Part shown: piece by piece, positions 1,529 to 25,895 of the stretch
How positions within the stretch are numbered: the first letter of the stretch is position 1
Layout of the letters: every line of letters begins with the position of its first letter
Sequence record: PV730300.1
Length of the DNA: 64,000 nucleotides
Source of the DNA: a phage
Direction: 5' to 3' (one strand)
The notes under the pieces: model-generated
Database searches by the model: none
Told to the model about the DNA's origin: nothing
The model's input: the letters and a program-made list of their open reading frames with translations, nothing else
Made by a program: the position numbers and the translations under genes

Positions 1529-1533
1529 AATTG

Positions 1534-3196: not shown

Positions 3197-3205
3197 TTTC
3201 TCTCC

Positions 3206-3707: not shown

Positions 3708-3822
3708 AGACTACTACTCGTCCCTCACCATGACAATTCAGGCAAGGAAATGTTACCATAATTTCCACTTCCATCTGTCCAGTCCCACCGCACACAGGAC
3801 AAAAAATAAGTTTTTCAGCCAT
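3676..3822 (-). CDS. small zinc-ribbon protein (48 aa)
   Basis: Unlisted ORF MAEKLIFCPVCGGTGQMEVEIMVTFPCLNCHGEG... with two CxxC pairs; AAGGAGG 5 nt upstream. Confidence 0.35.
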   Translation of the reverse strand: MAEKLIFCPVCGGTGQMEVEIMVTFPCLNCHGEGRVVVFEKEEVEDGE

Positions 3823-4031
3823 TATTCCTCCTTAATTATTTCAAACTTGGCAACACCGTTTACAATAATATGACCACAAGACATAACTCCTAGCCAAGGA
3901 TCGCCGTTTTTCTTCGGGCGTTTACCGAATACATCACAAAAACCATTCTTCATTTCGGAGGCTTCATAAGAAGCCCCTTTGTCAAAAACGTCTTTGAATG
4001 TGTCGATTATACCAACACATCTCAAAATCAT
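3822..4031 (-). CDS. hypothetical protein
   Basis: ORF in tight gene array. Confidence 0.35.
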   Translation of the reverse strand: MILRCVGIIDTFKDVFDKGASYEASEMKNGFCDVFGKRPKKNGDPWLGVMSCGHIIVNGVAKFEIIKEE

Positions 4032-5116
4032 TAGAAGTCAAGCTCCTCATCATCAGAGAGATCTTTGTTAGCTGAATTCAATTTGTAATTAGTTAACTGA
4101 ATCTCTTGGGCTGCTGACTGAATCAAATCAGGATTCAACCATTTTTCCATCCAAGCTAAAGGACTATGTTTAGGTGCTTTAAACTTAGCTTTCATTTTCA
4201 ATCGACGATAAATAGGAGCAGCATTGAAATAAACCCACTGTTTAGACAATTCGGCGTTAAGACCTACAATAAAACGACCTTCACTAAACAGGTAGTCACA
4301 CCACTGTTCCTCTTGTTCAACAACAGTGTCGAGGATCAAAGTCAACTCTTCAATATTGTCTTCGTAAATTTTACGCCAAATTGGGTCATGCATCAATGCA
4401 TCAATTACAGCATAATCCATCTTAACATGCAAGATTTCATCTAACATAATTTTCTGGATCAGTTTACAAGCCCCAACAAACAGTTGTTGTTCTGCCATAG
4501 CAAAAGTAGCAGAGAAGGAAGATATAAACTGAATACCTTCTAATCCAATCAGGGCTACCATCCCTTTAAGAATCAGCAGTCGAAGTTCATCGTTAGCTTC
4601 AATCAATCCTAGAGCATACTTATGACCAGCTTCTTCCAACTGACCCATGATATCAGCAATGATACCCATACGATTGAAAATTTTATCATTAATCATAATC
4701 TGATTGATGACTTCGATTGGATCTGGAGTACATTGACGGATTATTTCAGAATACGTTAACGCATGGAGAACTTCCATTTCACTCTGCTTCATCATCATAG
4801 CACAGGCTTCATTGTTACTCAAGAATGGAGAGAACAAAGTGATGATTGATTTTGCAAGAGAATCATTTTCCCATTGGAACGATAAGTTTTTAATCATAAC
4901 ATCATAGTTGTTTTTAGAACAAGCTACGAAATCTTTACGTGTCTGATCCAGATTGACTTCATTCTCATCCCAATCTTGTGCTTTTTGAAGTTTGTAGAGT
5001 TTGTGCATTTCTGGATAAGTTACGTTAACAGAATCAAAGATCCCTAATTGTTCCCCTAAAAATACTGGATATTTTCCTGTTTTGTAAACTTCATTGTGTA
5101 AATTAATTGCTGCCAT
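4031..5116 (-). CDS. nrdB: ribonucleotide reductase class I small (beta) subunit
   Basis: Ferritin-like NrdB pattern (LEGIQFISSFSATFA, DEILHVKMDY); adjacent to nrdA. Confidence 0.8.
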   Translation of the reverse strand: MAAINLHNEVYKTGKYPVFLGEQLGIFDSVNVTYPEMHKLYKLQKAQDWDENEVNLDQTRKDFVACSKNNYDVMIKNLSFQWENDSLAKSIITLFSPFLSNNEACAMMMKQSEMEVLHALTYSEIIRQCTPDPIEVINQIMINDKIFNRMGIIADIMGQLEEAGHKYALGLIEANDELRLLILKGMVALIGLEGIQFISSFSATFAMAEQQLFVGACKLIQKIMLDEILHVKMDYAVIDALMHDPIWRKIYEDNIEELTLILDTVVEQEEQWCDYLFSEGRFIVGLNAELSKQWVYFNAAPIYRRLKMKAKFKAPKHSPLAWMEKWLNPDLIQSAAQEIQLTNYKLNSANKDLSDDEELDF

Positions 5117-5133
5117 TTAAAATTCTCCTCAAT

Positions 5134-5155
5134 AAAAGGGGGCCGAAGCCCCTTT
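5134..5155 (-). terminator. hairpin/attenuator between nrdA and nrdB (minus strand, UUCG tetraloop)
   Basis: Minus-strand RNA reads GGGGC-UUCG-GCCCC followed by CUUUUAUU. Confidence 0.5.
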
Positions 5156-5184
5156 ACGTTTACCCTTCTTCACCTGTTCTCCTA

Positions 5185-7428: not shown

Positions 7429-7444
7429 CTTCTCCTCCCTATTA

Positions 7445-7699
7445 TTAATGCATATTCAAAACATCTACATCATAACCGAACTTCATTTCATTAAAAAGTC
7501 CATTAGCATATAGAAAACCTTCAAAATGAGTTATGTCATCAAACCCTTTTGCTTTTGCTCGACGGTCTGCTTCTTGTCTTTTAGGAGATAAACGTTTTGA
7601 AGTGTCTAGAATTACAGTTACATTACAACCAACAGTTTCATCAAAATAGACTTCGATTTCACAGCCTTCATATTTATTATCAGTCATTGTCCCTCTCAT
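7445..7699 (-). CDS. hypothetical protein
   Basis: ORF. Confidence 0.4.
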   Translation of the reverse strand: MRGTMTDNKYEGCEIEVYFDETVGCNVTVILDTSKRLSPKRQEADRRAKAKGFDDITHFEGFLYANGLFNEMKFGYDVDVLNMH

Positions 7700-8106
7700 T
7701 GATTAGTATCATCTGCTTTCGCAGGATCATAAGAGTTACCGAAATCATCCATCTTAATATGTGACGCACCCCAACCTGTAAATTCTTCATCACCAAAATG
7801 AAAAATATCATTTTCTTGGTAGATTCGTTTAAAACCACAATTAGGTGAAACAGGGAAAGTGAAAAGCGTTGTATTTGCAAACACTACTCGCTTATCGTTA
7901 TTGCTTCGGATATTCACATTACGCTCAACAGAATAGTGTGAATCTTCAGCCATACCCAGCATTACAAGCGACGCTCTAATAACAGCATTTTGTTTCTCGT
8001 GTGGGATATTGCCATTGTGTTTATTTGATTCTAGTTTCCAGATAGGGGTAGACATTACAGTAGACATGCTTACGGTAGCCCAAGTTGTAGTATTTACTAA
8101 TGACAT
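7696..8106 (-). CDS. hypothetical protein
   Basis: ORF; start placed at the MSLVNTT Met, which has GAAGGAG at good spacing. Confidence 0.4.
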   Translation of the reverse strand: MSLVNTTTWATVSMSTVMSTPIWKLESNKHNGNIPHEKQNAVIRASLVMLGMAEDSHYSVERNVNIRSNNDKRVVFANTTLFTFPVSPNCGFKRIYQENDIFHFGDEEFTGWGASHIKMDDFGNSYDPAKADDTNQ

Positions 8107-8160
8107 ATTTTCTCCTTCGTTTTGAATGGGAGGACTCACCTCCTCCCAGTATTGTGCTAT

Positions 8161-8188
8161 ATTATACTAAAACTAATACTAAAGTCAA
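8161..8188 (-). promoter_or_regulatory. sigma70-like promoter on minus strand (TTGACT-N16-TATAAT)
   Basis: rc of 8183-8188 is TTGACT, rc of 8161-8166 is TATAAT, 16-nt spacer. Confidence 0.5.
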
Positions 8189-8204
8189 TAACTATTTAAA
8201 CAGA

Positions 8205-9203
8205 TCACCATTTAGTATGATTTGTTAAAAGTTGACGATGTTGAATCCAGCCTTTGAAATTGCCAGACCAAAACTTACCATTACGATCTACATGGGTAAT
8301 ACCTGGTTCCCAAGAGTTAAAATCCCAAGGAGCATTGATAAACAAATCTTCAAAACAGTTCTCTCCATATTGTTCGCATGTTTCTTGCATTGGAGTGGCT
8401 TGATGTTCAAACGGAGAAGCATGAACCTTGCGCCCAGTCAGCAAACGACCATAGATATCTAAAGCTTTATCTTTAGTTGCATTCAAACGACGATAGCTAA
8501 CCTGTGCACAACACGAAGCTGAAATAGCTTTGGCTTCTTCCAAAGTAAGCACAACAACTTCTCCAGATTCATCTTGAACGTAGTATCCACCAAAAACAAA
8601 ATGATCGTCACCTTCTGTGCCAATATTATCATAGAAATGGTCTACATAAGGTGTGTGCCATTGCCCTGGTTTCAGCACCTCTGGTGTAGATTCTTCATAC
8701 TCTTTGTGCATATCTTTAGCCAAAGCTTCGATAGTAGGATCGGCTTCTTTGTCATCACGTAGCCACCAGAAATTTTCATATTCTGTTGCTGTCAGAACTG
8801 TTTTAATTCGTTGGAAAGGTTCTAGAAGACGGTTTGCAACTTGTTTGTGGTACCCTGCCAAAGAGAATTCTTCTGCAAAACGTGCTGCACTAAGCGCGGC
8901 AAGATCCCACCACTCTTGAGCAGTATAACCTGCATCAATAAGAGCGTCATGATCAACACCTTTATCCTGCATACCAGGTTGGTTAGCCCCAAAACGATAA
9001 GGACGAGCAGGTTGATTTCGCACCATTTCAATCAGTGTTTTAACAGGTATAGCACGGCTAGAAGCAGCATTACGACTGAACAGGCGGTGAGTCATCAATT
9101 CTGAATGAATAATACGTGGATATTCTAGTTCAAAAGTTACAATCTCTTTTCCGTCTTCAGTGATGGAATGCGCAATAATACTAGCCGAAATCTGTTTTGT
9201 CAT
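8205..9203 (-). CDS. thyX: flavin-dependent thymidylate synthase (ThyX-like)
   Basis: ThyX N-terminal pattern including HRLFSRNAASSR (RHR-x7-S-like signature). Confidence 0.65.
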   Translation of the reverse strand: MTKQISASIIAHSITEDGKEIVTFELEYPRIIHSELMTHRLFSRNAASSRAIPVKTLIEMVRNQPARPYRFGANQPGMQDKGVDHDALIDAGYTAQEWWDLAALSAARFAEEFSLAGYHKQVANRLLEPFQRIKTVLTATEYENFWWLRDDKEADPTIEALAKDMHKEYEESTPEVLKPGQWHTPYVDHFYDNIGTEGDDHFVFGGYYVQDESGEVVVLTLEEAKAISASCCAQVSYRRLNATKDKALDIYGRLLTGRKVHASPFEHQATPMQETCEQYGENCFEDLFINAPWDFNSWEPGITHVDRNGKFWSGNFKGWIQHRQLLTNHTKW

Positions 9204-9212
9204 TTTTTCTCC

Positions 9213-9821
9213 TTAGTTTTTAAAATTGTTCAAAGTGTTAAAAACATCCAAACATGTTAGCCACTGATCTTCTAAACCTGTGATCACAACATTTGGTTTT
9301 TTCTTTAGTTCTTCTAGATGGTTATCTTTATAAGGCGTATTAAAATATATTTTAACCACTTCATCTGGAAAATATAGTAGGTTATCAGCCCTGTCATCTA
9401 TTGCTATATCACAAGGCAATAAGTATTTTTCTTTCGTAGCAAAAAAGCCGTTACCAGATCCTTTGCTAAAATCAATCGTATCTAACGTTCTTAAAACATG
9501 CTTATGTTTAGAACTTAAGTGACCACCTTTTGTCACACTTGCGATCAAAAGATTGCTACCTTTCCTTGAAACATACTTTAAGAAATCCGGCATACCTGGA
9601 ACAAAACCCATTGTATCATAGAGATGAGGATTATCCAGAAATCCGTAAGGATCTATATTGAACTCCTCCCTGAAACCAGGAAAGTAGTTGGTAAGATCAT
9701 AGTCTGCATTTTTTGTGAATGTGTCTATCTTAACACCAAGTCCACTAATCTTATTCAACCATTCTAACCAAGCAACATCTAATGGAGCCACAACTAAATC
9801 CCAATCACATACTATCTGCAT
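9213..9821 (-). CDS. HAD-like phosphatase, possible 5'(3')-deoxyribonucleotidase
   Basis: N-terminal DxD-type motif (CDWDLVV); nucleotide-metabolism neighbourhood. Confidence 0.35.
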   Translation of the reverse strand: MQIVCDWDLVVAPLDVAWLEWLNKISGLGVKIDTFTKNADYDLTNYFPGFREEFNIDPYGFLDNPHLYDTMGFVPGMPDFLKYVSRKGSNLLIASVTKGGHLSSKHKHVLRTLDTIDFSKGSGNGFFATKEKYLLPCDIAIDDRADNLLYFPDEVVKIYFNTPYKDNHLEELKKKPNVVITGLEDQWLTCLDVFNTLNNFKN

Positions 9822-10433: not shown

Positions 10434-10656
10434 TATTGCTCACCTTTTTAGCTGTATATTCCCCTGGTGGGATATTGTGTTTAAAAAACAAAAGGCGGTC
10501 TAACCCAGCCTTGCACATTGTTTCTGGAATAGTCAAAGTTAGTAAAAGTTTATCACCTTTTCGGTTGAATATTTTATAAACTTCTCCTGCTCCATATTGT
10601 TTAGTATTACTCGCCACTAATACGTTCCTTAAGTTGTTTAATAGCTTCGATTGCAT
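10423..10656 (-). CDS. hypothetical protein
   Basis: ORF. Confidence 0.35.
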   Translation of the reverse strand: MQSKLLNNLRNVLVASNTKQYGAGEVYKIFNRKGDKLLLTLTIPETMCKAGLDRLLFFKHNIPPGEYTAKKVSNIGR

Positions 10657-11002
10657 CTACATAAGAAGAGTTATACATGTGTTTCAGTGCTACTCGTACT
10701 AAAGGATCTTTTGTGAAGAAATCAATAAGAAGCATAGCTTGATCATGTTTAGCTGCATTTGTCATAGATGGATAATTTTCACGAACCATATACGTGTTAT
10801 TTTGCATAAGGGTTCTTTCTAGTTCAATACAATGAATAGCTTTATCTAGGTTAATCTGACGTTCACCTTTGATACGTGTTGCGTATTTTGCCAATTTGCA
10901 AAAACAAGGTGTGCCACCAACCAAATAAGCTAGTTCAATAGGTTGCATTGCCATTTTTGTGTAGTGATCACCGTCAACCTGATTATCAAAAGCATTAGAC
11001 AT
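10607..11002 (-). CDS. hypothetical protein
   Basis: ORF. Confidence 0.4.
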   Translation of the reverse strand: MSNAFDNQVDGDHYTKMAMQPIELAYLVGGTPCFCKLAKYATRIKGERQINLDKAIHCIELERTLMQNNTYMVRENYPSMTNAAKHDQAMLLIDFFTKDPLVRVALKHMYNSSYVDAIEAIKQLKERISGE

Positions 11003-11258
11003 AATTTTCCTCCTGAATTCCTACTGCGCCGTCTTCTGGGTAGTCTGTATAATAAGCTACCCTACCTTGATAGATAACATCACCATCGCTATTGTAGATT
11101 GCTGTATCTTCTTGAATTGTTATTTCAACGTCAAGTAAATCTGGGTCTTTCTCGATGGTATAGTTCAAACCTAACATTTCAAACAGTTCGAAAATTTCGT
11201 TACCTGTTAATGTAATGCTCATATTTCCTCCTTTTATTGTGGTTAGCAGAGTATACAC
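10995..11258 (-). CDS. hypothetical protein
   Basis: ORF; preceded by a minus-strand promoter. Confidence 0.4.
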   Translation of the reverse strand: MYTLLTTIKGGNMSITLTGNEIFELFEMLGLNYTIEKDPDLLDVEITIQEDTAIYNSDGDVIYQGRVAYYTDYPEDGAVGIQEENYV

Positions 11259-11278
11259 TAATATAAAATTTTTGTCAA
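11250..11278 (-). promoter_or_regulatory. sigma70-like promoter on minus strand (TTGACA-N17-TATACT)
   Basis: rc of 11273-11278 is TTGACA, rc of 11250-11255 is TATACT. Confidence 0.5.
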
Positions 11279-11280
11279 TA

Positions 11281-11303
11281 AAAAAGGGAGCAATAAGCTC
11301 CCT
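11281..11303 (-). terminator. intrinsic terminator (minus strand)
   Basis: GGGAGC-loop-GCTCCC hairpin followed on the minus-strand RNA by a U-run. Confidence 0.5.
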
Positions 11304-11308
11304 GATTA

Positions 11309-12268
11309 TTAGATTCCAATAATAGTTGCTGCTCGTTTATCCTTGGATCTGGTGTTTGCTCTACTACGTGACAAACCTCCACAAGATTCACAACGAATGA
11401 TATCGAAAGAACTTACCGCAGTGTGGTATTGCTTACCAGTAACAACGTGAACATGATCACTTCCGCAACGAGAACAACGGACTTTCTCATCTGGGTAATA
11501 AGCGGATAAGTTAGGATGTTGTGGAATCCACGGAAGGATTTTCATATACAAATCACGGAGTGAAACAACATCACCATCGTTGTAAATCTGCATACGTTCA
11601 AAAGCATCACGATCACCTTCACAACATGCTTTCCATAAAGGGAACCCCTCGTTATCCAGTTTTTCACTCTCTGTTTCGAAATATGCTCCCATTTCTTTAA
11701 GGGAGTTGGAAGGAAGTGCAAATTGTTTCTTAGCTGCCTTCAATGTATCAACAACTACATAATTAGAAGGAGGAGCCATATCGTGATATGCAAATCGTTG
11801 GTTAATGTATGCACGGTCAAACTTATACCCGTTGTGTGCCACAACTACATCTGCCTCATTCAGAAGGTTCCAAAGATCTTGGCAAAGCTCCCAATCATCT
11901 GTATGATCAATATCAAAAAGAGGATAAGAAGACAAATTCTTACCTTCCACTTCACCAGTATACAGATCAGCAGAAGAATAAGATAACAAATAACCTCTGC
12001 GAATTACCTGGTCTGGAGAAATGAAGGCTTTGAATCGACGGAAAGTATATGCAATCTCTGGTGCAGTTTCAACATCAATAATTTTAATAACTGGTTGTTT
12101 CTTTTTAACGGGTTCTTGTTTACTTCCACTGAAACGTGCAAGGAAATCATTTACTGTGCTTTTTCTTGTTGGGCTACCTAAAACAATTGCTGCAATATTG
12201 CGAGAAGACATACCCTCTGCACTCATACTAAGGATATCTGCTTTCTGCTCTTCTGTTAATCTGCTCAC
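11309..12268 (-). CDS. putative nuclease (RNase H-fold exonuclease-like) with C-terminal zinc ribbon
   Basis: IDVET acidic motif; C-terminal CSRCG...CESCGG. Confidence 0.4.
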   Translation of the reverse strand: MSRLTEEQKADILSMSAEGMSSRNIAAIVLGSPTRKSTVNDFLARFSGSKQEPVKKKQPVIKIIDVETAPEIAYTFRRFKAFISPDQVIRRGYLLSYSSADLYTGEVEGKNLSSYPLFDIDHTDDWELCQDLWNLLNEADVVVAHNGYKFDRAYINQRFAYHDMAPPSNYVVVDTLKAAKKQFALPSNSLKEMGAYFETESEKLDNEGFPLWKACCEGDRDAFERMQIYNDGDVVSLRDLYMKILPWIPQHPNLSAYYPDEKVRCSRCGSDHVHVVTGKQYHTAVSSFDIIRCESCGGLSRSRANTRSKDKRAATIIGI

Positions 12269-14612: not shown

Positions 14613-15338
14613 TTACTTGTTAATAATACCTGCAATATTAGGTTTAATGAAACCTGACCACTTCATGATCTTACCTTTATCATCAAAGAACACATACACT
14701 TTCTGTTTTTCATTATAAACAGCATGAACACCAGTGTATGCCCCTTCTGGACGATTGGCATTTCGTTCTTCAATTGCAGCACATTCTTGTGCAATGGCTG
14801 AATCGATATCTGAAGTTTTCCAAGTTTTCAGCAACTGTTGTTTAGTTGGATACTTGGAATCATTGCTTTTCAATACCTCTTTAATAACTTTCTTTTCTGG
14901 ATATTTTGAACGGATTAGAGTGTCACGAGACATACGCATAATACCCGCAGCCATTAGCGCCATTTGAACTGGCTCTGTAAATGTTTGTTCCAAAGCATCG
15001 AAATCGGTATACACAGTTGGAGTAAAAACATCGCCTACAGCATAGTCCAAGAAATTCATCGTATGTTCTTCACCAAAGAACATGTAAGTCAGATAACTGG
15101 ATACTACAAAAATATCCGCTGCTGCATCCAAGAGTTCTACATGATCGTTTACTTTCGCGGCTGTTTCATACTCTTTAAGCTCTTCACGAACGAACCCGAT
15201 TTGGGACATAAATAGCTCTTGAGTGAATTCAGGTTGTTCGCCACCTCGTGCTTTGGCATTCCAATCAATCACGTGCTTTGCTGCATTTTTGAAAAATTCA
15301 GTATCGAATTTAATATCTTTAAAAAAATTCTCGATCAT
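14613..15338 (-). CDS. MazG-like nucleotide pyrophosphohydrolase
   Basis: EELKEYETAAKVNDHVELLDAAADIFV: MazG-type EExxE...D helix motif. Confidence 0.55.
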   Translation of the reverse strand: MIENFFKDIKFDTEFFKNAAKHVIDWNAKARGGEQPEFTQELFMSQIGFVREELKEYETAAKVNDHVELLDAAADIFVVSSYLTYMFFGEEHTMNFLDYAVGDVFTPTVYTDFDALEQTFTEPVQMALMAAGIMRMSRDTLIRSKYPEKKVIKEVLKSNDSKYPTKQQLLKTWKTSDIDSAIAQECAAIEERNANRPEGAYTGVHAVYNEKQKVYVFFDDKGKIMKWSGFIKPNIAGIINK

Positions 15339-15347
15339 TATAACTCC

Positions 15348-15608
15348 TTATTTAAAATAGCTTTCTAGAAAGTTGCTAATATTTACTACAGTCTCACCCA
15401 TGTAAATTCCTGCGAAACCGAAAACAAGCATACGTGGAATATTGAAATACCATTTATCCGCCGGAAAAGATGCCAGAATTACAATAGCAATTGCTATCAA
15501 CATCATAAGAATTGTTGCTAAGATTATCATAAAAATGCCTCCAGGTATTTTGCACAATGATAAGCTAAGAAACAAGAAACTACCGCATACCCAACTCCAG
15601 ACATACAT
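15348..15608 (-). CDS. small membrane protein
   Basis: Hydrophobic predicted transmembrane segments. Confidence 0.35.
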   Translation of the reverse strand: MYVWSWVCGSFLFLSLSLCKIPGGIFMIILATILMMLIAIAIVILASFPADKWYFNIPRMLVFGFAGIYMGETVVNISNFLESYFK

Positions 15609-15721
15609 GAATCAATCGCAACACATATGGTTCTTTTCTTTGAATTCTTAGGAAAGTTTTCAGAAGCATTCATACAATAAAAAGAAAGCACACTGAAAAC
15701 GATTAAAATGGCTAAGAACAT
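15527..15721 (-). CDS. small membrane protein (overlaps the previous ORF; only one may be real)
   Basis: Hydrophobic ORF. Confidence 0.25.
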   Translation of the reverse strand: MFLAILIVFSVLSFYCMNASENFPKNSKKRTICVAIDSCMSGVGYAVVSCFLAYHCAKYLEAFL

Positions 15722-15730
15722 TTTTCCTCC

Positions 15731-16858
15731 TTATTCTGCTGGTTCCCAAGTGCCTGGGATCATTTCTCGGATACGAACACCAACAGGTTTTGTTGGAATA
15801 CCTTCATCTGAAAATTCTTCATACTCTATTTCAACGAACTGATTAATCAAGGTAGAAGCATTCTCTGCTTTACGATAATTGATAGTCTCATGAGCATCTT
15901 TACGCATTAAGAATTCGACTACTTTACCATTTTCCATCTCACCTGTCAACACTCCATCGCCATTTTTATCACTTTTTGAATTTATTACTTTAACTTCAAG
16001 CGTATGACGAGGCTTACGTTTAATAACATCATAAGAACGTTTATCAAATTCGTAAACTCCGTGAGCATTACGATATACTACACCTTCAGCTTTCTCAAGT
16101 AAAGCTTTTTCATAGAAAGCATCAAACTGTTCTTGGTTTTCAATATACTCTGTATGAACTACACAAATAAGCTCATCAAGACCATAATCCTCCACTACTG
16201 CCTTAAGAGCAGTAAGAACATCAACACGTTTTTCAAACGGTAGATCTGGAACTGGAATATCGTATACGTAATAATTCAGCAAAGGTGTATTTGCATTATG
16301 CTTCTTCCAGGCACTGTTAATTTGTTGCAGACTAAGAACACCTAACCCAGCAAACACTTCACCATCAAGAGGATGACCAACAACTTCACTAATAAAGTTT
16401 GGAATACCTTTCCAATGAGGTGGCAGGTTGTACACTTCCCCAGCTTTTGATAAACACTCCCCTTTCATGTTAATCATAGAACGTAACCCGTTCAGTTTGT
16501 ATTGTGCATAACCAGGGAACACAACCCTTTCAGGATAATCTTTATAATCCTGGCATTTCATTGGTGTGGAAGGAACATGGTTTTCAGCTTCTTCTTTTGT
16601 TTTATAATAGCCATTCTTTAACTGTTTTGTCCATTTGGCAAAAGCTTCAAGTTCAGCTTGTTCTTCCGGTGTTGTTTCATTGGAACGACCAATGTTTTTT
16701 GCTTCTGCTGTATAAGATTTTTCTGTGATTTTTCCACCTACCCTTCCATGAGCTACAGTAACAACTGCACCATCTGTATACACTGTCCACTGTTTAAGTT
16801 TTCCTTTTGAATCTTTACCATACAGCGTTTGATTTGTTTGTTGCATTAGTCCTCCCAC
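15731..16858 (-). CDS. ATP-dependent DNA ligase
   Basis: Nucleotidyltransferase motif I KLNGLR (KxDG-type); size about 375 aa as in T7-type ligases. Confidence 0.7.
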   Translation of the reverse strand: MGGLMQQTNQTLYGKDSKGKLKQWTVYTDGAVVTVAHGRVGGKITEKSYTAEAKNIGRSNETTPEEQAELEAFAKWTKQLKNGYYKTKEEAENHVPSTPMKCQDYKDYPERVVFPGYAQYKLNGLRSMINMKGECLSKAGEVYNLPPHWKGIPNFISEVVGHPLDGEVFAGLGVLSLQQINSAWKKHNANTPLLNYYVYDIPVPDLPFEKRVDVLTALKAVVEDYGLDELICVVHTEYIENQEQFDAFYEKALLEKAEGVVYRNAHGVYEFDKRSYDVIKRKPRHTLEVKVINSKSDKNGDGVLTGEMENGKVVEFLMRKDAHETINYRKAENASTLINQFVEIEYEEFSDEGIPTKPVGVRIREMIPGTWEPAE

Positions 16859-17067
16859 TTAAAAACTGAAATTTTCAATCTGTTACACACTTCATCCAAA
16901 TCTGCGTCGAGTAACGTTGTAGATGTTGCCAACATATAATCAATACTTGTGAAACCTTGCCCTTTGGCATAGTCAAGCATATCTTCATACATATCTTCAA
17001 GATCACCGTCATCAAAAGTAGCTAGAAAATCCTCGTCTCCGCTACGAACATAAAATGCAGTACTCAT
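16846..17067 (-). CDS. strongly acidic small protein
   Basis: 73 aa with many more Asp/Glu than Lys/Arg. Confidence 0.4.
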   Translation of the reverse strand: MSTAFYVRSGDEDFLATFDDGDLEDMYEDMLDYAKGQGFTSIDYMLATSTTLLDADLDEVCNRLKISVFKWED

Positions 17068-17255
17068 TCTTCTTCATCCCAAGATTCAAAAGCACAACAA
17101 TCATCGGTTTCTATAATACCAACACGTCCGCAGGTATTGCAAGTGATTTTATCCCCGTAGAATAAATAATTTTTATCACCCTCTGTGTTTACAGTTATGT
17201 CATTACTACCACAAGGGCAAGTCAGCCAACCAACAACAACGATATCTTTTTTCAT
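17064..17255 (-). CDS. small zinc-ribbon protein
   Basis: CPCG...CNTCG Cys pairs. Confidence 0.4.
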   Translation of the reverse strand: MKKDIVVVGWLTCPCGSNDITVNTEGDKNYLFYGDKITCNTCGRVGIIETDDCCAFESWDEEE

Positions 17256-17264
17256 AATCCCTCC

Positions 17265-17591
17265 TTAAGCGTTAAGTTCGTTGTTGAGTTCGTAAATCTC
17301 TTCTTGAAGAGCATCAATCTCTTCCTCCAAACGGGAGATCTCTTCTTTTAGATATACCATTTCGGATTCTTTCTCTTCTAATTCATTTTCAAATTTTACT
17401 TTATTAGCCTCATTTTCATAATGCAGTTCAGCGTAATCATCACGCATTTGTTCAATAAGATGAATCAGAGACAAGATATAATTGTCTCCCGTTTCATCAC
17501 GCCACTCTTCACCGTGACGGAGAACGGTAATTCGTCCAGTATCTTCATCTAAAATTGTCTCATATTTACGATCATCTGTATAAATCTGCAT
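17265..17591 (-). CDS. coiled-coil protein
   Basis: Heptad-rich C-terminus (EEISRLEEEIDALQEEIYELNNEL). Confidence 0.4.
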   Translation of the reverse strand: MQIYTDDRKYETILDEDTGRITVLRHGEEWRDETGDNYILSLIHLIEQMRDDYAELHYENEANKVKFENELEEKESEMVYLKEEISRLEEEIDALQEEIYELNNELNA

Positions 17592-17600
17592 TATTTCTCC

Positions 17601-18005
17601 TTATTGAAGTTTAAGTGAACCACGAAGACGTTTCTCTTGCTGATCACGGATATATTGTGGAACCTCGTGAATTGAATCATTACCGTGCCTATTTTCAACA
17701 ACTAAAGAGATAACTTGATAACCAAACTCTTCAGCAAGAGCTAGGTAAGGTTTAAGTTCTTTCTCTGTGGTTGAAGTATTAGAAACAATAATCTTGTTAA
17801 GATTAGATGCCATAGCATCACGAACAATACCCTGACACCATGCGTGTGCTTTACCTACATTTTCTGGCTTCCAATCGTAAACACCACTTTCTGTGTAATG
17901 ATATTGATCTGCCTCACAGATAGGCCAATAACCTTCAGAAATAATTTCTGCTACTGTAGATTTACCAGCACCTGAAACGCCACGTAAAATGATAAGTTGT
18001 TTCAT
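17601..18005 (-). CDS. P-loop kinase, putative polynucleotide 5'-kinase
   Basis: Walker A GVSGAGKST in a 134-aa protein; adjacent to RNA ligase and phosphoesterase genes. Confidence 0.5.
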   Translation of the reverse strand: MKQLIILRGVSGAGKSTVAEIISEGYWPICEADQYHYTESGVYDWKPENVGKAHAWCQGIVRDAMASNLNKIIVSNTSTTEKELKPYLALAEEFGYQVISLVVENRHGNDSIHEVPQYIRDQQEKRLRGSLKLQ

Positions 18006-18938
18006 TTATCCTCCAAAAAAGTTTTCGATTTTTTCACGTCGCTCTTGCTGATTTAAAGCAGCCCATTGAGTCTTCGTAAAATTATTTCGAATCCATTCTA
18101 ACAAAGCGTAATATTCTTCGTCAACCATTTGCTTGGCATTTTTTGGATTATCCCAAATCAGATCCCACTTTTTATCTCCACCACGCATAAGAAACTTCTT
18201 AGTAAGATAGTGTGGTGATTTAATTTTTAAAAGTAAGTTGAACGGATAGTTTGTTTCACGAACTACAAACCCTTCGTGTTTACAATGTTTAGACATTTCA
18301 ACCACATCTGAAAATTTAATCATCGGATAAACTTCAGGACGTTTAAATTTTGTAATAGATGCAATCCCATCAAGCACACCTTCAGGTAACATAAAACTTG
18401 TCCCATCAGGATTTTGAATTCTGGCACCAATTAAGTATGCACCTGGTTCTTCTTCGACAATATGCGGATCAGAAGGATCACAGATTTCAAACAGGAAAGT
18501 TGCTTTTGCACTCTCTGCCCATTTGATGAAATGTTCTATGTCATCGCACTCTGAAACAATATGATTCTTTGCAATACTTGCAAAATCTGATTCAAGGCTT
18601 CCTGTTGTCGATACAATAAGTTGACCTTTATATACACCTACAGAGGCCATAAAACCATTTACTTTACGAACCACATCTACAAGTTCATCCGCTGGTAGAT
18701 CTGTGCCATTCTCAAAACGATTAAAAATCTTAGTGAAAGGCCAAATAACAACATTGTCATCAGCATCAACAACGATTCCGCGACATTCTAGAAGACGAGA
18801 ATCAATGCTCCATAAGTTATCCCAGAAAACTTTGTTCTTATACTTAAGAACAGATAGACCAGAATACTCTCCTTCTTTATATGTTTTCTTATGAACTAAA
18901 CCTTTTTCAACCAAATCGTCGCAATTAAATTTAGTCAC
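18006..18938 (-). CDS. RNA ligase-like covalent nucleotidyltransferase
   Basis: Motif I KVNGF (KxNG), motif IV EGFVVR, motif V LLKIKS in the correct order. Confidence 0.6.
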   Translation of the reverse strand: MTKFNCDDLVEKGLVHKKTYKEGEYSGLSVLKYKNKVFWDNLWSIDSRLLECRGIVVDADDNVVIWPFTKIFNRFENGTDLPADELVDVVRKVNGFMASVGVYKGQLIVSTTGSLESDFASIAKNHIVSECDDIEHFIKWAESAKATFLFEICDPSDPHIVEEEPGAYLIGARIQNPDGTSFMLPEGVLDGIASITKFKRPEVYPMIKFSDVVEMSKHCKHEGFVVRETNYPFNLLLKIKSPHYLTKKFLMRGGDKKWDLIWDNPKNAKQMVDEEYYALLEWIRNNFTKTQWAALNQQERREKIENFFGG

Positions 18939-18939
18939 A

Positions 18940-19491
18940 TTACTCTCCTTTGATTATTTTGTGATGGTCTACAGTCACGATATCTCGTTTACTCATCATA
19001 GAAATTATCTCATCAAAATGCAAGATTTTTCCGTGTGCATCCCAACCCACATCTAACATTTTACCATAAGCTTCATCAGGGAAAGATCCGTGGGAATGCC
19101 CGTGTAGCATGATTGATCCACGACCTTGTTTATTCCAGGAGGCTATAGGGTAATGGCTTAAGACGAAGAACAGCTTCTGATATTTCACTTCGTCATAATA
19201 CACCACTTCTCCATACTCTGCAAGCACTTCTCGGTGTTTGCTGTAGTCATGGTTCCCAACACAGTAGGTGATATCTCCTTGGAGACGGGAAGCAATTTTA
19301 CGGGTATCTTCTTCAGTTCCGAAACAGAAGTCGCCCAAATGCCACATCTTAACACCAGGAGTAGTAGCACATTTGTTCCATGCTTCGATCAAGGCTTCTG
19401 TCATGTGGTCCATATCTTCCCACGGACGATATTCAGGAGCAAACTCTCGAATACGTTTATGCATAAAATGCAAATCGCTTGTAATAAACAT
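18940..19491 (-). CDS. calcineurin-like metallophosphoesterase
   Basis: DLHF, GDFCFG, GNHD, LHGHSHG metallophosphoesterase signature blocks. Confidence 0.7.
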   Translation of the reverse strand: MFITSDLHFMHKRIREFAPEYRPWEDMDHMTEALIEAWNKCATTPGVKMWHLGDFCFGTEEDTRKIASRLQGDITYCVGNHDYSKHREVLAEYGEVVYYDEVKYQKLFFVLSHYPIASWNKQGRGSIMLHGHSHGSFPDEAYGKMLDVGWDAHGKILHFDEIISMMSKRDIVTVDHHKIIKGE

Positions 19492-19847
19492 TAGTATAAT
19501 CCCTCGCTAAATAATTCATGGTCGTGACCATTACGCTCATGGTCGATCTGGTCAGCATTTTCCGCGATGATGTAAGCATCCGCACGACTCCACCAATTGT
19601 AATACTGATCGATAAAGCCTTGATTATCTGGTGTGCACAAAGTTTTGTTGATTACACCTGCTTCTTTCAACACGTTTAACTGTGCATATAGTACAGGATT
19701 TGCATGTCGAACACAAGGAATAATTAATTCTTCACCATTATTCAAAATATACTTATTCGCAGCACAGACGATAACACGTTGCGCATAATGGCCCTCACCA
19801 ATCCAGGTGAGAGGTTGGTAACAAATGTTCTGATCAATACTACTCAT
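19491..19847 (-). CDS. hypothetical protein
   Basis: ORF. Confidence 0.4.
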   Translation of the reverse strand: MSSIDQNICYQPLTWIGEGHYAQRVIVCAANKYILNNGEELIIPCVRHANPVLYAQLNVLKEAGVINKTLCTPDNQGFIDQYYNWWSRADAYIIAENADQIDHERNGHDHELFSEGLY

Positions 19848-19858
19848 TAAATTTCTCC

Positions 19859-20215
19859 TTAATAGTGAACACGAATCATTTTAATACCATAACGCAGCAT
19901 GGATTCTTTTGCAAGCATGAATTTATCCCCAGCGGCGGGATTAGAAGTATGCACGAAAATGGTAGGTGAACCAAAGCAAGGTTTACCAAACGCCAGAAGT
20001 TCTTCCAAACGCAAGAAAACATCATACCCGTCTTGATCAGAATCTTCACCCAAATCGTTGTCAAAATGCCACTCGTCTACAAAACGATAACCCTTCTGCA
20101 CCTCATTCATGTAACGAGAGGCAAGAAGTTCCTGTGAGGTTTTAAACCAGATTGCATCTGGACAACCATAATCTTTTGGATCACGTAAATCATCAAGCCA
20201 AATAATAGTACCCAT
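19859..20215 (-). CDS. hypothetical protein
   Basis: ORF. Confidence 0.4.
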   Translation of the reverse strand: MGTIIWLDDLRDPKDYGCPDAIWFKTSQELLASRYMNEVQKGYRFVDEWHFDNDLGEDSDQDGYDVFLRLEELLAFGKPCFGSPTIFVHTSNPAAGDKFMLAKESMLRYGIKMIRVHY

Positions 20216-20225
20216 ATAACCTCCT

Positions 20226-20696
20226 CTAAGCTGGCATTATTAAAAAAGAACTCTCCACTTCAAAATGCCAATCATCCACAAGCCCTGATTCCCAATCCTT
20301 CTCTTCATGGAAAGAGCAAATCCAACGGTACATACCTGGCGGTGTATTCTCAACATCTTCTGGCAACCCGTAATCCAAAGCTGTCAAACCGTTCTCTGTA
20401 AAACTAGGATGGAGATTAGGAGCTTTCAATACAGAAACCATGCCTCCAACATCTACAGCCACAATCCACTCTGTCATGTATGGGCTGTCATATTGAGGCT
20501 CATCAGAACCTACCTCAACAGCCTCTGTGCGTAAGATGATAATAGCCTGCTCTGTGATTGGGGCTTTGACAATATACCCGTGGTCCTCAAAAAGATCGAT
20601 AACCTCGAACTCATCACCGTTTTCGATACCATAGCTCTTATTCAAAGAGATAAACTTCGGGTTATCATCGTAAGCTTTAGTTACTTTAATTTTCAT
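20226..20696 (-). CDS. acidic hypothetical protein
   Basis: ORF. Confidence 0.4.
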   Translation of the reverse strand: MKIKVTKAYDDNPKFISLNKSYGIENGDEFEVIDLFEDHGYIVKAPITEQAIIILRTEAVEVGSDEPQYDSPYMTEWIVAVDVGGMVSVLKAPNLHPSFTENGLTALDYGLPEDVENTPPGMYRWICSFHEEKDWESGLVDDWHFEVESSFLIMPA

Positions 20697-20917
20697 TTTT
20701 CCTCCTTCACTTTAACCTCAAATTCTACAGGCTTGCCCTCAATGTAAAAACACTGATACTCTGACTTATCATCCTCATCACGAGGCCAAGTTACCAAGGA
20801 GTTATAGCAATCTTCTGGTGCTTTGAAGATGTTTTTAGTCTCCACAGTAACATTCCCATTAAGTGTTGCCAATACCACCCAACCAGCTACAGGGATCATA
20901 GTGTCTCCACTTTCCAC
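20693..20917 (-). CDS. hypothetical protein
   Basis: ORF. Confidence 0.4.
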   Translation of the reverse strand: MESGDTMIPVAGWVVLATLNGNVTVETKNIFKAPEDCYNSLVTWPRDEDDKSEYQCFYIEGKPVEFEVKVKEEK

Positions 20918-21078
20918 GTTTTACCATTATCAACCAAGGTCTTTGCTACAGCATACTCCTTCCCATTAATAATGAAATAATAAACTATAAAAGATTTTCC
21001 GATTGTTACTGTCTTAGTAACCTCTACGCGTTTAACACCTTGCATGTATTTCGCCTTACCGGAATAGAGTAAAATCAT
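20896..21078 (-). CDS. hypothetical protein
   Basis: ORF. Confidence 0.35.
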   Translation of the reverse strand: MILLYSGKAKYMQGVKRVEVTKTVTIGKSFIVYYFIINGKEYAVAKTLVDNGKTWKVETL

Positions 21079-23969: not shown

Positions 23970-24044
23970 GGCCCTGTAGCTCAATGGGAGAGCTGTCGGC
24001 TCATAACCGATAGGTAGCTGGATCGAAACCAGCCAGGGCCACCA
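23970..24044 (+). tRNA. tRNA-Met (anticodon CAT)
   Basis: Manual cloverleaf: acceptor GGCCCTG/CAGGGCC, anticodon loop CTCATAA, CCA encoded. Confidence 0.7.
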
Positions 24045-24046
24045 AC

Positions 24047-24121
24047 GTCTTTATGGTGTAATGGATAGCACAGGAGTCTTCTAAACTCTTAGTCAAGGTT
24101 CGATTCCTTGTAAAGACACCA
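24047..24121 (+). tRNA. tRNA-Arg (anticodon TCT)
   Basis: Acceptor GTCTTTA/TAAAGAC, anticodon loop CTTCTAA, T arm CAAGG-TTCGATT-CCTTG. Confidence 0.65.
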
Positions 24122-24122
24122 G

Positions 24123-24306
24123 AACATTTTAACATGAATTAGCTCAAGTGATTTGAACCCACTACTGATCATGGTGGCAGAGAATGAGGCAAGTATGTCA
24201 GACATTATAAACAAAGGCCACGGTTATATTAGAAGACATAAATGCTCGAAGAGCACCGTTCGTTGAGAACGGGGGTTGGTGGAGTCACCATTCATGGTAA
24301 AATGTT
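24123..24306 (+). ncRNA. candidate structured small RNA 2
   Basis: 16-nt terminal helix AACATTTTAACATGAA (24123-24138) / TTCATGGTAAAATGTT (24291-24306), 15 of 16 paired, enclosing several hairpins. Confidence 0.35.
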
Positions 24307-24317
24307 TTAAAAAACTA

Positions 24318-24347
24318 TTGACAACTAACATTATTTTATGTTAGATT
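24318..24347 (+). promoter_or_regulatory. sigma70-like promoter (internal to the tRNA cluster)
   Basis: AAACTATTGACA at 24318-24323, 17 nt, TGTTAGATT-type -10. Confidence 0.45.
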
Positions 24348-24355
24348 ATAAGTAT

Positions 24356-24446
24356 GGAAGGGCAAATCGACGTGGCGACGAAAACGGTCTTGAAAACCGC
24401 CGAGCTTGAAAGAGCCTTGGGAGTTCGACTCTCCCTCCTTCCGCCA
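24356..24446 (+). tRNA. tRNA-Ser (anticodon TGA), class II
   Basis: Acceptor GGAAGGG/TCCTTCC, anticodon loop CTTGAAA, long variable arm, CCA encoded. Confidence 0.7.
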
Positions 24447-24451
24447 GATTA

Positions 24452-24537
24452 GGTAGATTGGTGAAATGGTAGCCACGACAGTTTGCTAAACTGTAGTCGG
24501 AAACGGCGTGTAGGTTCGAGTCCTACATCTACCGCCA
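24452..24537 (+). tRNA. tRNA-Ser (anticodon GCT), class II
   Basis: Acceptor GGTAGAT/ATCTACC, anticodon loop TTGCTAA, long variable arm. Confidence 0.7.
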
Positions 24538-24667
24538 AGTTCTTTTTAATATAGCTTACTTTAATAGAGTAAACTTTCGGCAGATGGCCCCCACCATCTT
24601 ACCGATAACTCATAGTTAGTGGTGTGAACACTGGCTATTTTAAAAAGAATTTAAATATTAGTATTTA

Positions 24668-24755
24668 GGTGAGTTAATTCCGTAGGGGTAGCGGGGCAGA
24701 CTGTAAATCTGTTATCATTGCGATTCGGGTGGTTCGACTCCATCACTCACCACCA
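24668..24755 (+). tRNA. tRNA-Tyr (anticodon GTA), class II
   Basis: Acceptor GGTGAGT/ACTCACC, anticodon loop CTGTAAA. Confidence 0.7.
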
Positions 24756-24761
24756 AATTAA

Positions 24762-24847
24762 GATGAGTTGGCTGAATGGTTTAAGCGGCGGACTGTTAAT
24801 CCGTGTTCGAAAGAACGATATAGGTTCAAATCCTATACTCATCGCCA
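24762..24847 (+). tRNA. class II tRNA, isotype uncertain (anticodon loop reads CTGTTAA, i.e. GTT)
   Basis: Acceptor GATGAGT/ACTCATC, T arm ATAGG-TTCAAAT-CCTAT, about 15-nt variable arm; anticodon assignment ambiguous by hand. Confidence 0.45.
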
Positions 24848-24937
24848 GAATTATGGACTTGTAGAGTTAAGGTAAACCCCCAGTCGCCAAGAGGCTTCTG
24901 AAATTGCAGGTATCGAATCCTGCCGAGTCCCAGCTTT

Positions 24938-25012
24938 GCTCCTATAGTATAATGGCTATTACAACGGTTTTGTAATCCGTGGATCTCTGTTCGATTCAGA
25001 GTGGGAGCACCA
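24938..25012 (+). tRNA. tRNA-Thr (anticodon TGT)
   Basis: Acceptor GCTCCTA/TGGGAGC, anticodon loop TTTGTAA, T arm CTCTG-TTCGATT-CAGAG. Confidence 0.6.
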
Positions 25013-25287
25013 ACACAACATTAAGAGCACTGTGATTGATCGTCGTATCCTGTGCACAAGGTCTGTTCGAAAGACAGTGTTCTTAGTATTGTGTTGATCA
25101 CACAAAAAGAGTTACCTGAAACTTGACCGGAGTAGGGTTGGATGGGGCAAAAGAAGAAGCGGCTCTCCCATCGACAGCAACGAAGAATAATATTTGACTT
25201 TGGTTTTGTATTATTTTAAGTTAGCTTACCGAACGTAGGGCTAGTCACCCAATGGGATACTCGTCACTGTCCCACTCAATAAAACTA

Positions 25288-25317
25288 TTGACAACCAATA
25301 GTAAAATGTAGTATAGT
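25288..25317 (+). promoter_or_regulatory. sigma70-like promoter (internal to the tRNA cluster)
   Basis: AAACTATTGACA at 25288-25293, about 18 nt, TATAGT. Confidence 0.45.
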
Positions 25318-25328
25318 AAAGATGTAGG

Positions 25329-25403
25329 GCGTTCTTGGTGTAGCGGTAGCATTCCGTCCTTCCAAGTCGGCGGCACGAGTTCGATCCTCGTAGAACGCTC
25401 CAA
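25329..25403 (+). tRNA. tRNA-Gly (anticodon TCC)
   Basis: Acceptor GCGTTCT/AGAACGC, anticodon loop CTTCCAA, T arm ACGAG-TTCGATC-CTCGT. Confidence 0.7.
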
Positions 25404-25500
25404 ATTATTTAATAAAGGGTTGCCAGAAAACTTTCTCTTTTACTCATGGTTTTCTCCTTCTCTCACACCTCTTCTGGTTGCCCTTCATTAAATGATTTAT

Positions 25501-25576
25501 TGGTTTGTAGTGTAGTCCGGTAGCACACGACACTTTGACTGTCGTAGGTTTGGTTCAAATCCAGACAGACCAGCCA
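25501..25576 (+). tRNA. tRNA-Gln (anticodon TTG)
   Basis: Anticodon stem CGACA/TGTCG, loop CTTTGAC, T loop TTCAAAT. Confidence 0.7.
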
Positions 25577-25581
25577 TATAA

Positions 25582-25658
25582 CGGAATTTAGCTCAGTTTG
25601 GTAGAGCATACGCTTTGGGAGCGTAGGGTCGCAGGTTCGAATCCTGCAATTCCGACCA
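25582..25658 (+). tRNA. tRNA-Pro (anticodon TGG)
   Basis: Acceptor CGGAATT/AATTCCG, D stem GCTC/GAGC, anticodon loop TTTGGGA, T arm CGCAGG-TTCGAAT-CCTGC. Confidence 0.8.
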
Positions 25659-25664
25659 ATTTAA

Positions 25665-25738
25665 TGTTTCGTAGTTCAATGGTAGAACCCACGACTGATA
25701 ATCGTGAGACACAAGTTCGATTCTTGTCGAAACAACCA
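25665..25738 (+). tRNA. tRNA-Ile (anticodon GAT)
   Basis: Acceptor TGTTTCG/CGAAACA, anticodon stem CACGA/TCGTG, loop CTGATAA. Confidence 0.75.
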
Positions 25739-25740
25739 GT

Positions 25741-25810
25741 TTCCCGTTAGACTTACAGGATAAGAGTTCCACAGCTTATTGTGATGCTGGTTCGAATCCA
25801 GCACGGGATA
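25741..25810 (+). tRNA. putative tRNA, anticodon not assignable by hand
   Basis: Canonical T arm GCTGG-TTCGAAT-CCAGC and pairing acceptor ends, but no clean anticodon arm could be folded. Confidence 0.3.
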
Positions 25811-25816
25811 CCTAAT

Positions 25817-25895
25817 AGCGGGATAGAGGAGTCTGGTCGTCCTCGCCAGTTTCATATGCTGGAGATCATCGGTTCGAATCCGATTCCCGCCTCCA
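25817..25895 (+). tRNA. tRNA-Met (anticodon CAT), possibly initiator-like or Ile2-type
   Basis: Anticodon loop TTCATAT, T arm ATCGG-TTCGAAT-CCGAT, A1-C72 mismatch at the top of the acceptor stem. Confidence 0.6.

Follow-up and report, generated by a model that had tools for sequence, protein, structure and literature searches.

We analyzed a 64,000-nucleotide stretch of DNA (sequence record PV730300.1; here called the window) from a Phapecoctavirus-like coliphage of the phAPEC8 group, Stephanstirmvirinae, and found that three consecutive minus-strand genes at positions 17601 to 19491 encode the predicted parts of an RNA end-healing and sealing cassette. These parts are a P-loop kinase (17601 to 18005), an RNA ligase (18006 to 18938), and a metallophosphoesterase (18940 to 19491). 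A first-pass annotation made from the sequence alone had proposed this interpretation, and the coordinates that it gave match our list of open reading frames (ORFs) exactly. Homology, predicted fold, co-inheritance, and gene fusions all agree with the interpretation; the activity is a prediction. Our reading rests on the presence of the genes, the purifying selection on them, their conserved linkage, and the domain fusions, together with the family and fold assignments of the proteins and their intact catalytic residues; from these we infer the enzymatic activities, the substrate, and an anti-defense role. It is likely that the heal-and-seal chemistry acts on RNA. By analogy with phage T4, and from the conflict-associated neighbors of the genes, we put the probability that the cassette counters host anticodon nucleases at roughly 0.5 to 0.6.

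The cassette is real and widespread, yet it has already been annotated and predicted. GenBank and RefSeq label its genes "ATPase," "RNA ligase," and "phosphoesterase" or "metallophosphatase." Iyer, Burroughs, Anantharaman, and Aravind published the neighborhood in 2022 as a computational prediction in rV5-like phages (PMC9503650), and for Pakpunavirus Adele a kinase-ligase pair was proposed to serve in tRNA repair, with a remark on its missing 3′-phosphatase domain (PMC12846349). Beyond the literature examined are the near-universal linkage of an aq_1665-type phosphoesterase to the ligase, the kinase-ligase fusions, and a cyanobacterial three-domain fusion.

Layout and family assignment of the three genes

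The junctions of the cassette are tight. The stop codon of the upstream gene at 19491 to 19847 overlaps the start of the phosphoesterase gene in a TAATG, the ligase GTG stands one base 3′ of the phosphoesterase stop and is preceded by AAAGGAGAG, and the kinase ATG immediately follows the ligase TAA. Judged from these abutting and overlapping junctions, the three genes are translationally coupled. A scan for terminator-like hairpins found none inside the cassette, and a promoter scan gave 32 sites versus 30.1 by chance in shuffled sequence, so no dedicated cassette promoter can be claimed. Because there is no internal terminator and promoter matches are at the chance level, the cassette appears to be part of a long leftward transcription unit, and the three genes, with the cREC gene described below as a probable addition, probably form one transcription unit. 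Purifying selection on all three genes is strong (dN/dS of 0.07 to 0.13, measured against a relative at 89 to 94% amino acid identity), and the region from 15500 to 21000 is 98.4% identical to Escherichia phage Mt1B1_P17. Each cassette gene has a PHROG match (E values of 2e-56, 2e-70, and 9e-56, the last being that of the phosphoesterase to phrog_547). The phosphoesterase, RNA ligase, and kinase activities are predicted on separate polypeptides, as first proposed, and every motif that had been named for the three proteins was found in the translations, with the motif residues invariant in the family alignments.

The ligase is a predicted ATP-dependent enzyme of 310 amino acids with a GTG start. 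It carries motif I as K92-V-N-G-F (18651 to 18665, minus strand, as for all motifs below), motif IV as E222-G-F-V-V-R (18258 to 18275), and motif V as L236-L-K-I-K-S241 (18216 to 18233). The Pfam profile RNA_lig_T4_1 (PF09511) matched it with all of the profile covered, profile positions 1 to 227, at 55.5 bits against a cutoff of 28.3 (E = 9.4e-15), which bears out the earlier RNA-ligase-like assignment. Single-sequence searches of the PDB with the ligase and with the kinase gave nothing useful, and family profiles were required. When we built a ligase profile from 26 homologues at 50 to 87% identity, its sole PDB match was T4 Rnl1 (E = 3.7e-11), with which all of the nucleotidyltransferase motifs align. 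Residues R53, G54, K70, F72, K92, N94, G95, E151, E222, G223, K238, and K240 are invariant in the 26 homologues and align with the corresponding positions of T4 Rnl1. Upstream of motif I in the T4 enzyme, R54, K75, and F77 are Rnl1-specific residues that we take to be essential from mutagenesis by the Shuman laboratory. The sequence alignment to T4 Rnl1 ends at T4 residue 250, and the C-terminal helices of the phage ligase hold the invariant basic residues K248, R252, K257, and R300. The predicted fold is nearest those of T4 Rnl1 and Trl1, not those of Rnl2, Rnl3, Rnl5, or DNA ligases. Sequence and modeled fold thus place the product of 18006 to 18938 in the Rnl1 clade of RNA ligases; for DNA, the phage encodes a separate ATP-dependent ligase, described below.

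The kinase is a stand-alone protein of 134 amino acids that resembles polynucleotide 5′-kinases. Its P-loop, G9-V-S-G-A-G-K-S-T17, lies at 17955 to 17981, and its candidate general base, D33, is encoded at 17907 to 17909. The first-pass call of a P-loop kinase held up in profile searches, in which the Pfam family AAA_33 matched at 41.1 bits against a cutoff of 27 (E = 2.7e-10) and the PHROG "polynucleotide kinase" family matched at an E value of 8e-8. When the kinase family profile was compared with the PDB, the top matches were RNA-repair polynucleotide kinases, namely, Pnkp1 of the Pnkp1/Rnl/Hen1 complex (E = 5e-7), the Mucorales RNA kinases, T4 Pnk, and Clostridium thermocellum Pnkp (CthPnkp). 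G12, G14, and K15 of the P-loop, D33, and R106 are invariant in the family alignment. D33 aligns with D35 of T4 Pnk, the general base after strand 2 in that enzyme, and R106 falls near T4 R122 and R126, where the loop alignment is uncertain; R38 and R126 of T4 Pnk bind phosphate. No HAD (DxDxT) 3′-phosphatase domain is present in the 134 amino acids, which make up a kinase domain only. The possibility that this protein is a deoxynucleoside monophosphate (dNMP) kinase was checked computationally, and both the sequence and the modeled structure, which lies nearer to polynucleotide kinases than to (d)NMP kinases, favor the polynucleotide kinases. As far as computation reaches, then, the protein resembles polynucleotide 5′-kinases and not dNMP kinases.

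The phosphoesterase has 183 amino acids and is a candidate 2′,3′-cyclic-phosphate/3′-phosphate end-healing enzyme. Its motifs are D6-L-H8 (DxH, 19468 to 19476), G53-D-F-C-F-G58 (GDxxxG, 19318 to 19335), G79-N-H-D82 (GNHD, 19246 to 19257), and G131-H-S-H134 (GHxH, 19090 to 19101). In an alignment of 30 family members, H8, G53, D54, G79, N80, H81, H113, G131, H132, and H134 are invariant and D6 is present in at least 90%. The family profile matched 1XM7, the structural-genomics protein aq_1665, at an E value of 6e-23, with GpdQ, MJ0936, and YfcE as further and more distant matches; the others at an E value of 1 or less were 3CK2, a COG0622 predicted phosphoesterase, and 6UNC and 3RQZ, which are labeled only as metallophosphoesterase-domain proteins. 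The earlier call of a calcineurin-type metallophosphoesterase therefore stands on its complete set of metal ligands and on the 1XM7 match, but the score for Metallophos_2 (24.3 bits, E = 3.4e-5) is slightly below the Pfam cutoff of 27, and that family matches 13 of the 30 members at an E value below 0.01. We read the protein as a complete binuclear metallophosphoesterase in which all metal ligands have been kept. The binuclear metallophosphoesterases CthPnkp and lambda phosphatase, which heal 2′,3′-cyclic phosphate ends, provide a precedent (PMC2190708, PMC3675462). A role for the phage protein in RNA 3′-end healing is predicted, and it is the weakest inference in our reading.

Linkage, fusions, and neighboring genes

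The ligase family comprises 1,746 clusters at 90% identity, and no fewer than 686 deposited phage genomes encode a member, among them those of Escherichia, Pseudomonas, Vibrio, Klebsiella, Acinetobacter, Aeromonas, and Streptomyces phages. We examined 80 viral loci and two GenBank relatives (82 in all) by local hidden Markov model (HMM) searches. Kinases were counted with an HMM of the kinase domain only, since a first iterative kinase profile had pulled in ligase ORFs because of real kinase-ligase fusions. Among the 69 loci with an unfused ligase, a kinase lies within 8 kb in 65 and a phosphoesterase lies within 8 kb in 67, usually abutting. Clustering of the ligases at 70% identity gave 42 clusters; a kinase is fused or within 2 kb in 36 of these, a phosphoesterase is within 2 kb in 36, and both are found in 31. 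The gene order is phosphoesterase-ligase-kinase at 38 loci, kinase-ligase-phosphoesterase at 23, and divergent in one IMG/VR locus (L017), as it is in the rV5 record (L083). The linkage has thus been kept through rearrangements.

Additionally, the parts of the cassette are found fused. A kinase-ligase fusion of about 430 amino acids (AAA_33 plus RNA_lig_T4_1) occurs in 12 phage loci, and in Cardiobacteriaceae such a fusion is followed by an adjoining gene of the same phosphoesterase family. In Leptolyngbyaceae cyanobacteria, a single chain of about 710 amino acids combines an AAA_33 kinase, a Metallophos domain, and RNA_lig_T4_1, and approximately 28 Leptolyngbyaceae and other cyanobacterial genomes carry this tri-domain protein. 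Its kinase domain and the phage kinase are homologues (hhalign probability, 94.7%), as are its ligase domain and the phage ligase, at 30 to 35% identity. The gene in Leptolyngbya sp. PCC 7375 (positions 4768 to 6906 of the locus, about 712 amino acids) is chromosomal, and an RtcB gene lies 1.6 kb downstream of it at this one cyanobacterial locus whose neighbors were scanned; within 4768 to 9689, a Pol-beta nucleotidyltransferase/DUF29 pair separates the tri-domain gene from RtcB.

Two side observations concern the fused phage lineage. One of its loci (L052) also has an Rnl2-type RNA ligase carrying a PHA02142 OB domain, at 10518 to 11597. Other loci (L055, L056, L059, L065 to L068, and also L079) have transfer-messenger RNA (tmRNA) genes of the permuted two-piece type, with, for example, the tag AANDANYGDYALAA; these genes lie about 3.8 to 6.8 kb downstream of the ligase, and tRNA genes lie about 5 to 7 kb upstream.

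Two ORFs, or 368 bp, upstream of the cassette is a gene for a 118-amino-acid cyclic-phosphate-processing receiver-like (cREC) protein (19859 to 20215, minus strand; PF20274 cREC_REC, 50.5 bits against a cutoff of 27, E = 3.4e-13). Its receiver-type residues (DD, DxD, T/S, and K) are invariant, so that the acidic pocket is kept. A cREC gene lies within 2 kb of the ligase at 12 of the 82 loci and is also found in the rV5 relative (L083). Aravind's group, which defined the family, predicted that it processes cyclic phosphates and described its linkage to RNA ligases (PMC7824862); the linkage is described also in PMC9503650. We regard cREC as a probable extra part of the cassette for 3′-end or cyclic-phosphate processing. 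In public records, this gene is mislabeled "RNA ligase and tail attachment protein."

A T4_Y16D-family gene with no assigned function (19491 to 19847, minus strand; 118 amino acids; PF26092, phrog_839) separates cREC from the phosphoesterase; public records mislabel it as an "anti-restriction nuclease." A gene of this type is near the ligase at only 5 of the 82 loci, and elsewhere the family sits in unrelated early-gene contexts of T4-like and other phages. Therefore, we treat it as a probable passenger, and the idea that it substitutes for Sir2 was dropped. Pfam scans of 20 further ORFs and a tblastn search with rV5 Sir2 found no sirtuin in the window; in genomes of Phapecoctavirus and Justusliebigvirus, Sir2 homologues are encoded about 30 kb away from the ligase. 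Downstream of the cassette is a MazG-like nucleotide pyrophosphohydrolase gene (14613 to 15338, minus strand; PRA-PH, E = 2.7e-6; phrog_671). MazG is a recurrent neighbor in the phage superclade (15 of 82 loci) and a listed member of the rV5-type neighborhood (PMC9503650). With cREC upstream and MazG downstream, the functional unit is probably larger than three genes. In Pseudomonas phage PAK_P1 (locus positions 1490 to 8849), the cassette is flanked by genes for an HD-type "metal-dependent phosphohydrolase," a phosphoribosyl pyrophosphate (PRPP) synthetase, and a nicotinamide phosphoribosyltransferase of NAD salvage.

The leftward replication/nucleotide-metabolism module in which the cassette lies also includes ribonucleotide reductase, ThyX, exonucleases, RdgC, MazG, and a DNA ligase, and the right half of the window is a structural module that encodes terminase, portal, capsid, sheath, and tape measure proteins. 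Elsewhere in the window, an RmlD-like dTDP-4-dehydrorhamnose reductase and a dTDP-4-dehydrorhamnose 3,5-epimerase (1794 to 3196, minus strand; E = 2.6e-73 and 2.4e-67) may have a role in sugar-nucleotide or DNA/surface modification. An HNH/endonuclease-family ORF (39621 to 40937, plus strand; phrog_681/559) interrupts the tail gene module and is probably a homing endonuclease. A 108-amino-acid coiled-coil gene at 17265 to 17591 is mislabeled "DNA polymerase I" or "hol-like chemotaxis" in public records.

Proposed substrate and role of the cassette

In the mechanism that we propose, the metallophosphoesterase would open and remove a 2′,3′-cyclic phosphate, or remove a 3′-phosphate, to leave a 3′-OH, either by itself or following the opening of the cyclic phosphate by cREC. 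The 134-amino-acid P-loop kinase would phosphorylate the 5′-OH with a nucleoside triphosphate as the donor. The Rnl1-type ligase, adenylylated on K92, would then pass its AMP to the 5′-phosphate and seal the break. The likeliest substrates would be host or phage tRNAs whose anticodon loops have been nicked by metal-independent nucleases of the host, for which PrrC/RloC-type enzymes, HEPN-type enzymes, and colicin-like toxins are candidates.

Defenses that cleave tRNA are common and include PrrC, RloC, PARIS, retrons, Cas13, and HEPN toxins. To our knowledge, phage countermeasures to them beyond spare tRNAs are experimentally understood for T4 only. In that phage, Pnkp and Rnl1 are a counterdefense against PrrC (background in PMC4933390). 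Infection by the Pakpunavirus PAK_P3 brings about massive host RNA degradation and strong induction of the host RtcBA repair operon (PMC4933390), and PAK_P1, of the same genus, carries a related cassette; the induced operon is an indirect hint in favor of our reading. The first-pass annotation had also invoked linkage to a large tRNA array. An array of 10 tRNA genes does exist (identified with ARAGORN; 23970 to 25895, plus strand), at the junction of the leftward replication/nucleotide-metabolism and rightward structural modules, but approximately 4.5 kb separate it from the cassette and it is encoded on the other strand, so that "linked" holds only loosely. Of the 80 related viral loci, 41 have tRNA genes no more than 8 kb from the ligase, in lineages with differing gene orders, and we find this proximity suggestive of a link to the cassette.

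One member of the array is unusual in its own right. At 24762 to 24847 (plus strand), ARAGORN reports an 86-nucleotide "tRNA-Asn(GTT)" that has class II architecture, its variable arm being long and its D stem having 3 bp, together with a discriminator G and an encoded CCA end. The array of an rV5-like IMG/VR locus (L017) includes a class II tRNA-Tyr(GTA), at 667 to 753. An Asn anticodon on a class II body is out of the ordinary, and the gene might encode an anticodon-altered tRNA.

Several observations weigh against the counterdefense reading or against individual steps in it. The ligase, at 310 amino acids, is 64 shorter than the 374-residue T4 Rnl1, and it scored 24.2 bits against a cutoff of 242 for the T4 RnlA equivalog family (NCBIfam TIGR02308), whose full-length architecture includes a C-terminal tRNA-binding domain. 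K119 of T4 Rnl1, which we likewise take to be essential, corresponds to an invariant T112 in the ligase family, and the position of T4 Pnk R38 is H36 in the kinase. The phosphoesterase belongs, on its sequence, to the uncharacterized aq_1665 family, outside the lambda phosphatase/CthPnkp clade, and its nearest characterized relatives are general phosphodiesterases. Neither lambda phosphatase nor the CthPnkp phosphatase was among the PDB matches of the family profile at an E value of 1 or less, so the RNA 3′-healing assignment rests on genomic context and not on a characterized homologue. The fused kinase-ligase phage lineage has no phosphoesterase of this family within 8 kb, which means that the phosphoesterase is not obligatory. 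The metallophosphoesterase domain of the cyanobacterial fusion, considered as an orthologue of the phage protein, was rejected (hhalign probability, 17%; a different subfamily, PF00149). Therefore, the fusion backs the pathway logic and not the specific family, and a homologous kinase joined to a metallophosphoesterase of another subfamily points to convergence on one such logic. The proximity of the tRNA array may be an inherited layout of the rV5/phAPEC8 superclade (terminase, tRNAs, and early genes). In the literature on aq_1665, on short phage Rnl1-like ligases, and on the cassette, we found no biochemical or genetic test of a member of any of the three families. Lastly, defense by retron Eco2, a nickase of tRNA acceptor stems, is still effective against Stephanstirmvirinae (PMC12916289), so that any protection by the cassette is not general.

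This sensitivity to Eco2 also favors the view that the cassette mends or processes RNA by the same chemistry for the phage's own needs, whether to repair collateral RNA degradation induced by the phage or to maintain or mature phage tRNAs. The RNA degradation and RtcBA induction caused by PAK_P3, the related cassette in PAK_P1, and the placement of our cassette in a general nucleotide-metabolism/replication module point the same way. However, the sole experimentally understood phage analogue, T4 Pnkp/Rnl1, counters PrrC (PMC4933390), and the neighbors cREC, MazG, and, in rV5, Sir2 are conflict associated according to PMC9503650. We therefore judge an own-needs role to be unlikely.

An unlikely reading of similar weight is that the cassette represents a third route of RNA 3′-end healing, in which cREC would open the 2′,3′-cyclic phosphate and the aq_1665-type metallophosphoesterase would remove the resulting monoester. 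In a more radical version, which is covered by the same assessment, the short Rnl1-like ligase would act like Trl1 on a 3′-OH/2′-phosphate end, and the phage Sir2, whose gene is not linked to the cassette here and for which Iyer et al. proposed a KptA-like role, would later take off the 2′-phosphate. The family-invariant residues H159, R252, and R300 could then be analogues of the His-Arg-Arg triad by which fungal ligases enforce their requirement for a 2′-phosphate (PMC11404444).

We think it quite improbable that the phosphoesterase and cREC instead degrade immune signals derived from cyclic nucleotides or ADP-ribose and lie beside the ligase through clustering of early anti-defense genes. 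In support of such a role, cREC has been proposed to act on cyclic ADP-ribose or cyclic phosphates in NAD-centered conflicts (PMC7824862, PMC9503650), the nearest characterized relatives of the phosphoesterase (GpdQ, MJ0936, and YfcE) are small-molecule phosphodiesterases, and MazG and NAD-salvage genes adjoin the cassette in relatives. Chance clustering would be at odds with a phosphoesterase kept within 2 kb of the ligase in 36 of 42 clusters despite changes in order, with its position next to the kinase-ligase fusion in Cardiobacteriaceae, and with a metallophosphoesterase domain between kinase and ligase in the cyanobacterial fusion. Least probable of all is that the kinase and phosphoesterase heal DNA ends (3′-phosphate and 5′-OH) for the nearby ATP-dependent DNA ligase, with the Rnl1-like protein in another role or as a second joiner of DNA ends. 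In favor of this reading, that DNA ligase gene (15731 to 16858, minus strand; DNA_ligase_A_M, E = 1.2e-9; phrog_114, E = 2e-74) is 1.1 kb downstream, one lies within 8 kb of the RNA ligase at 45 of 82 loci, the phosphoesterase weakly matches the ligase-associated DNA-damage endonuclease PdeM (E = 0.004), and T4 Pnk acts on DNA too, but since the phage has its own DNA ligase, the Rnl1-like enzyme is not needed for DNA sealing.

If it is active as a countermeasure to anticodon nucleases, the cassette would be a widespread and readily testable RNA-repair counterdefense, and both cREC and the orphan aq_1665 family of metallophosphoesterases would gain a function. The phages that bear the ligase include therapeutic candidates (Phapecoctavirus, Vequintavirus, and Pakpunavirus). 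The conceptual change would be small, since the prediction is already published and the chemistry is as expected.

Comparison with known systems

In T4, Pnkp and Rnl1 repair tRNA-Lys after cleavage by PrrC, and their genes are unlinked. Here, by comparison, the cassette genes are contiguous, the kinase stands alone without the HAD 3′-phosphatase, and a separate binuclear metallophosphoesterase, possibly together with cREC, is the predicted 3′ healer. The ligase also differs from T4 Rnl1 in being shorter by the 64 residues noted above and in not being a T4 RnlA equivalog. Compared with the bacterial systems Pnkp/Hen1 of C. thermocellum and Pnkp1/Rnl/Hen1 of Capnocytophaga, the activities here are predicted on separate polypeptides, and the phosphoesterase is aq_1665-like rather than lambda-phosphatase-like. 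No Hen1-like methyltransferase was found among the window ORFs scanned, which sets the cassette apart from Pnkp/Hen1. The fungal and plant Trl1 enzymes, which join ligase, kinase, and cyclic phosphodiesterase (CPD) domains, gave no sequence match to the phage ligase even at an E value of 10, and the cassette differs from them in having no 2H cyclic phosphodiesterase.

A similar arrangement is known from rV5 and Proteus phage Mydo. In their published neighborhood, a T4-like tRNA ligase is accompanied by cREC, MazG, a nucleotide kinase, and a sirtuin for which a KptA-like action was proposed, and occasionally by a calcineurin-like phosphoesterase (PMC9503650). The rV5 locus that we inspected is exactly this neighborhood. 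The ligase, cREC, kinase, MazG, and phosphoesterase are all also present in the window. However, the window has a different gene order and an inserted T4_Y16D-like gene, and it is without the defining sirtuin, which places it outside the Sir2-adjacent type 2 systems. The Leptolyngbyaceae fusion, in turn, is a cellular protein of about 710 amino acids whose metallophosphoesterase is of another subfamily (PF00149), whereas its ligase and kinase domains are homologous to those of the phage and the same three activities are predicted for it.

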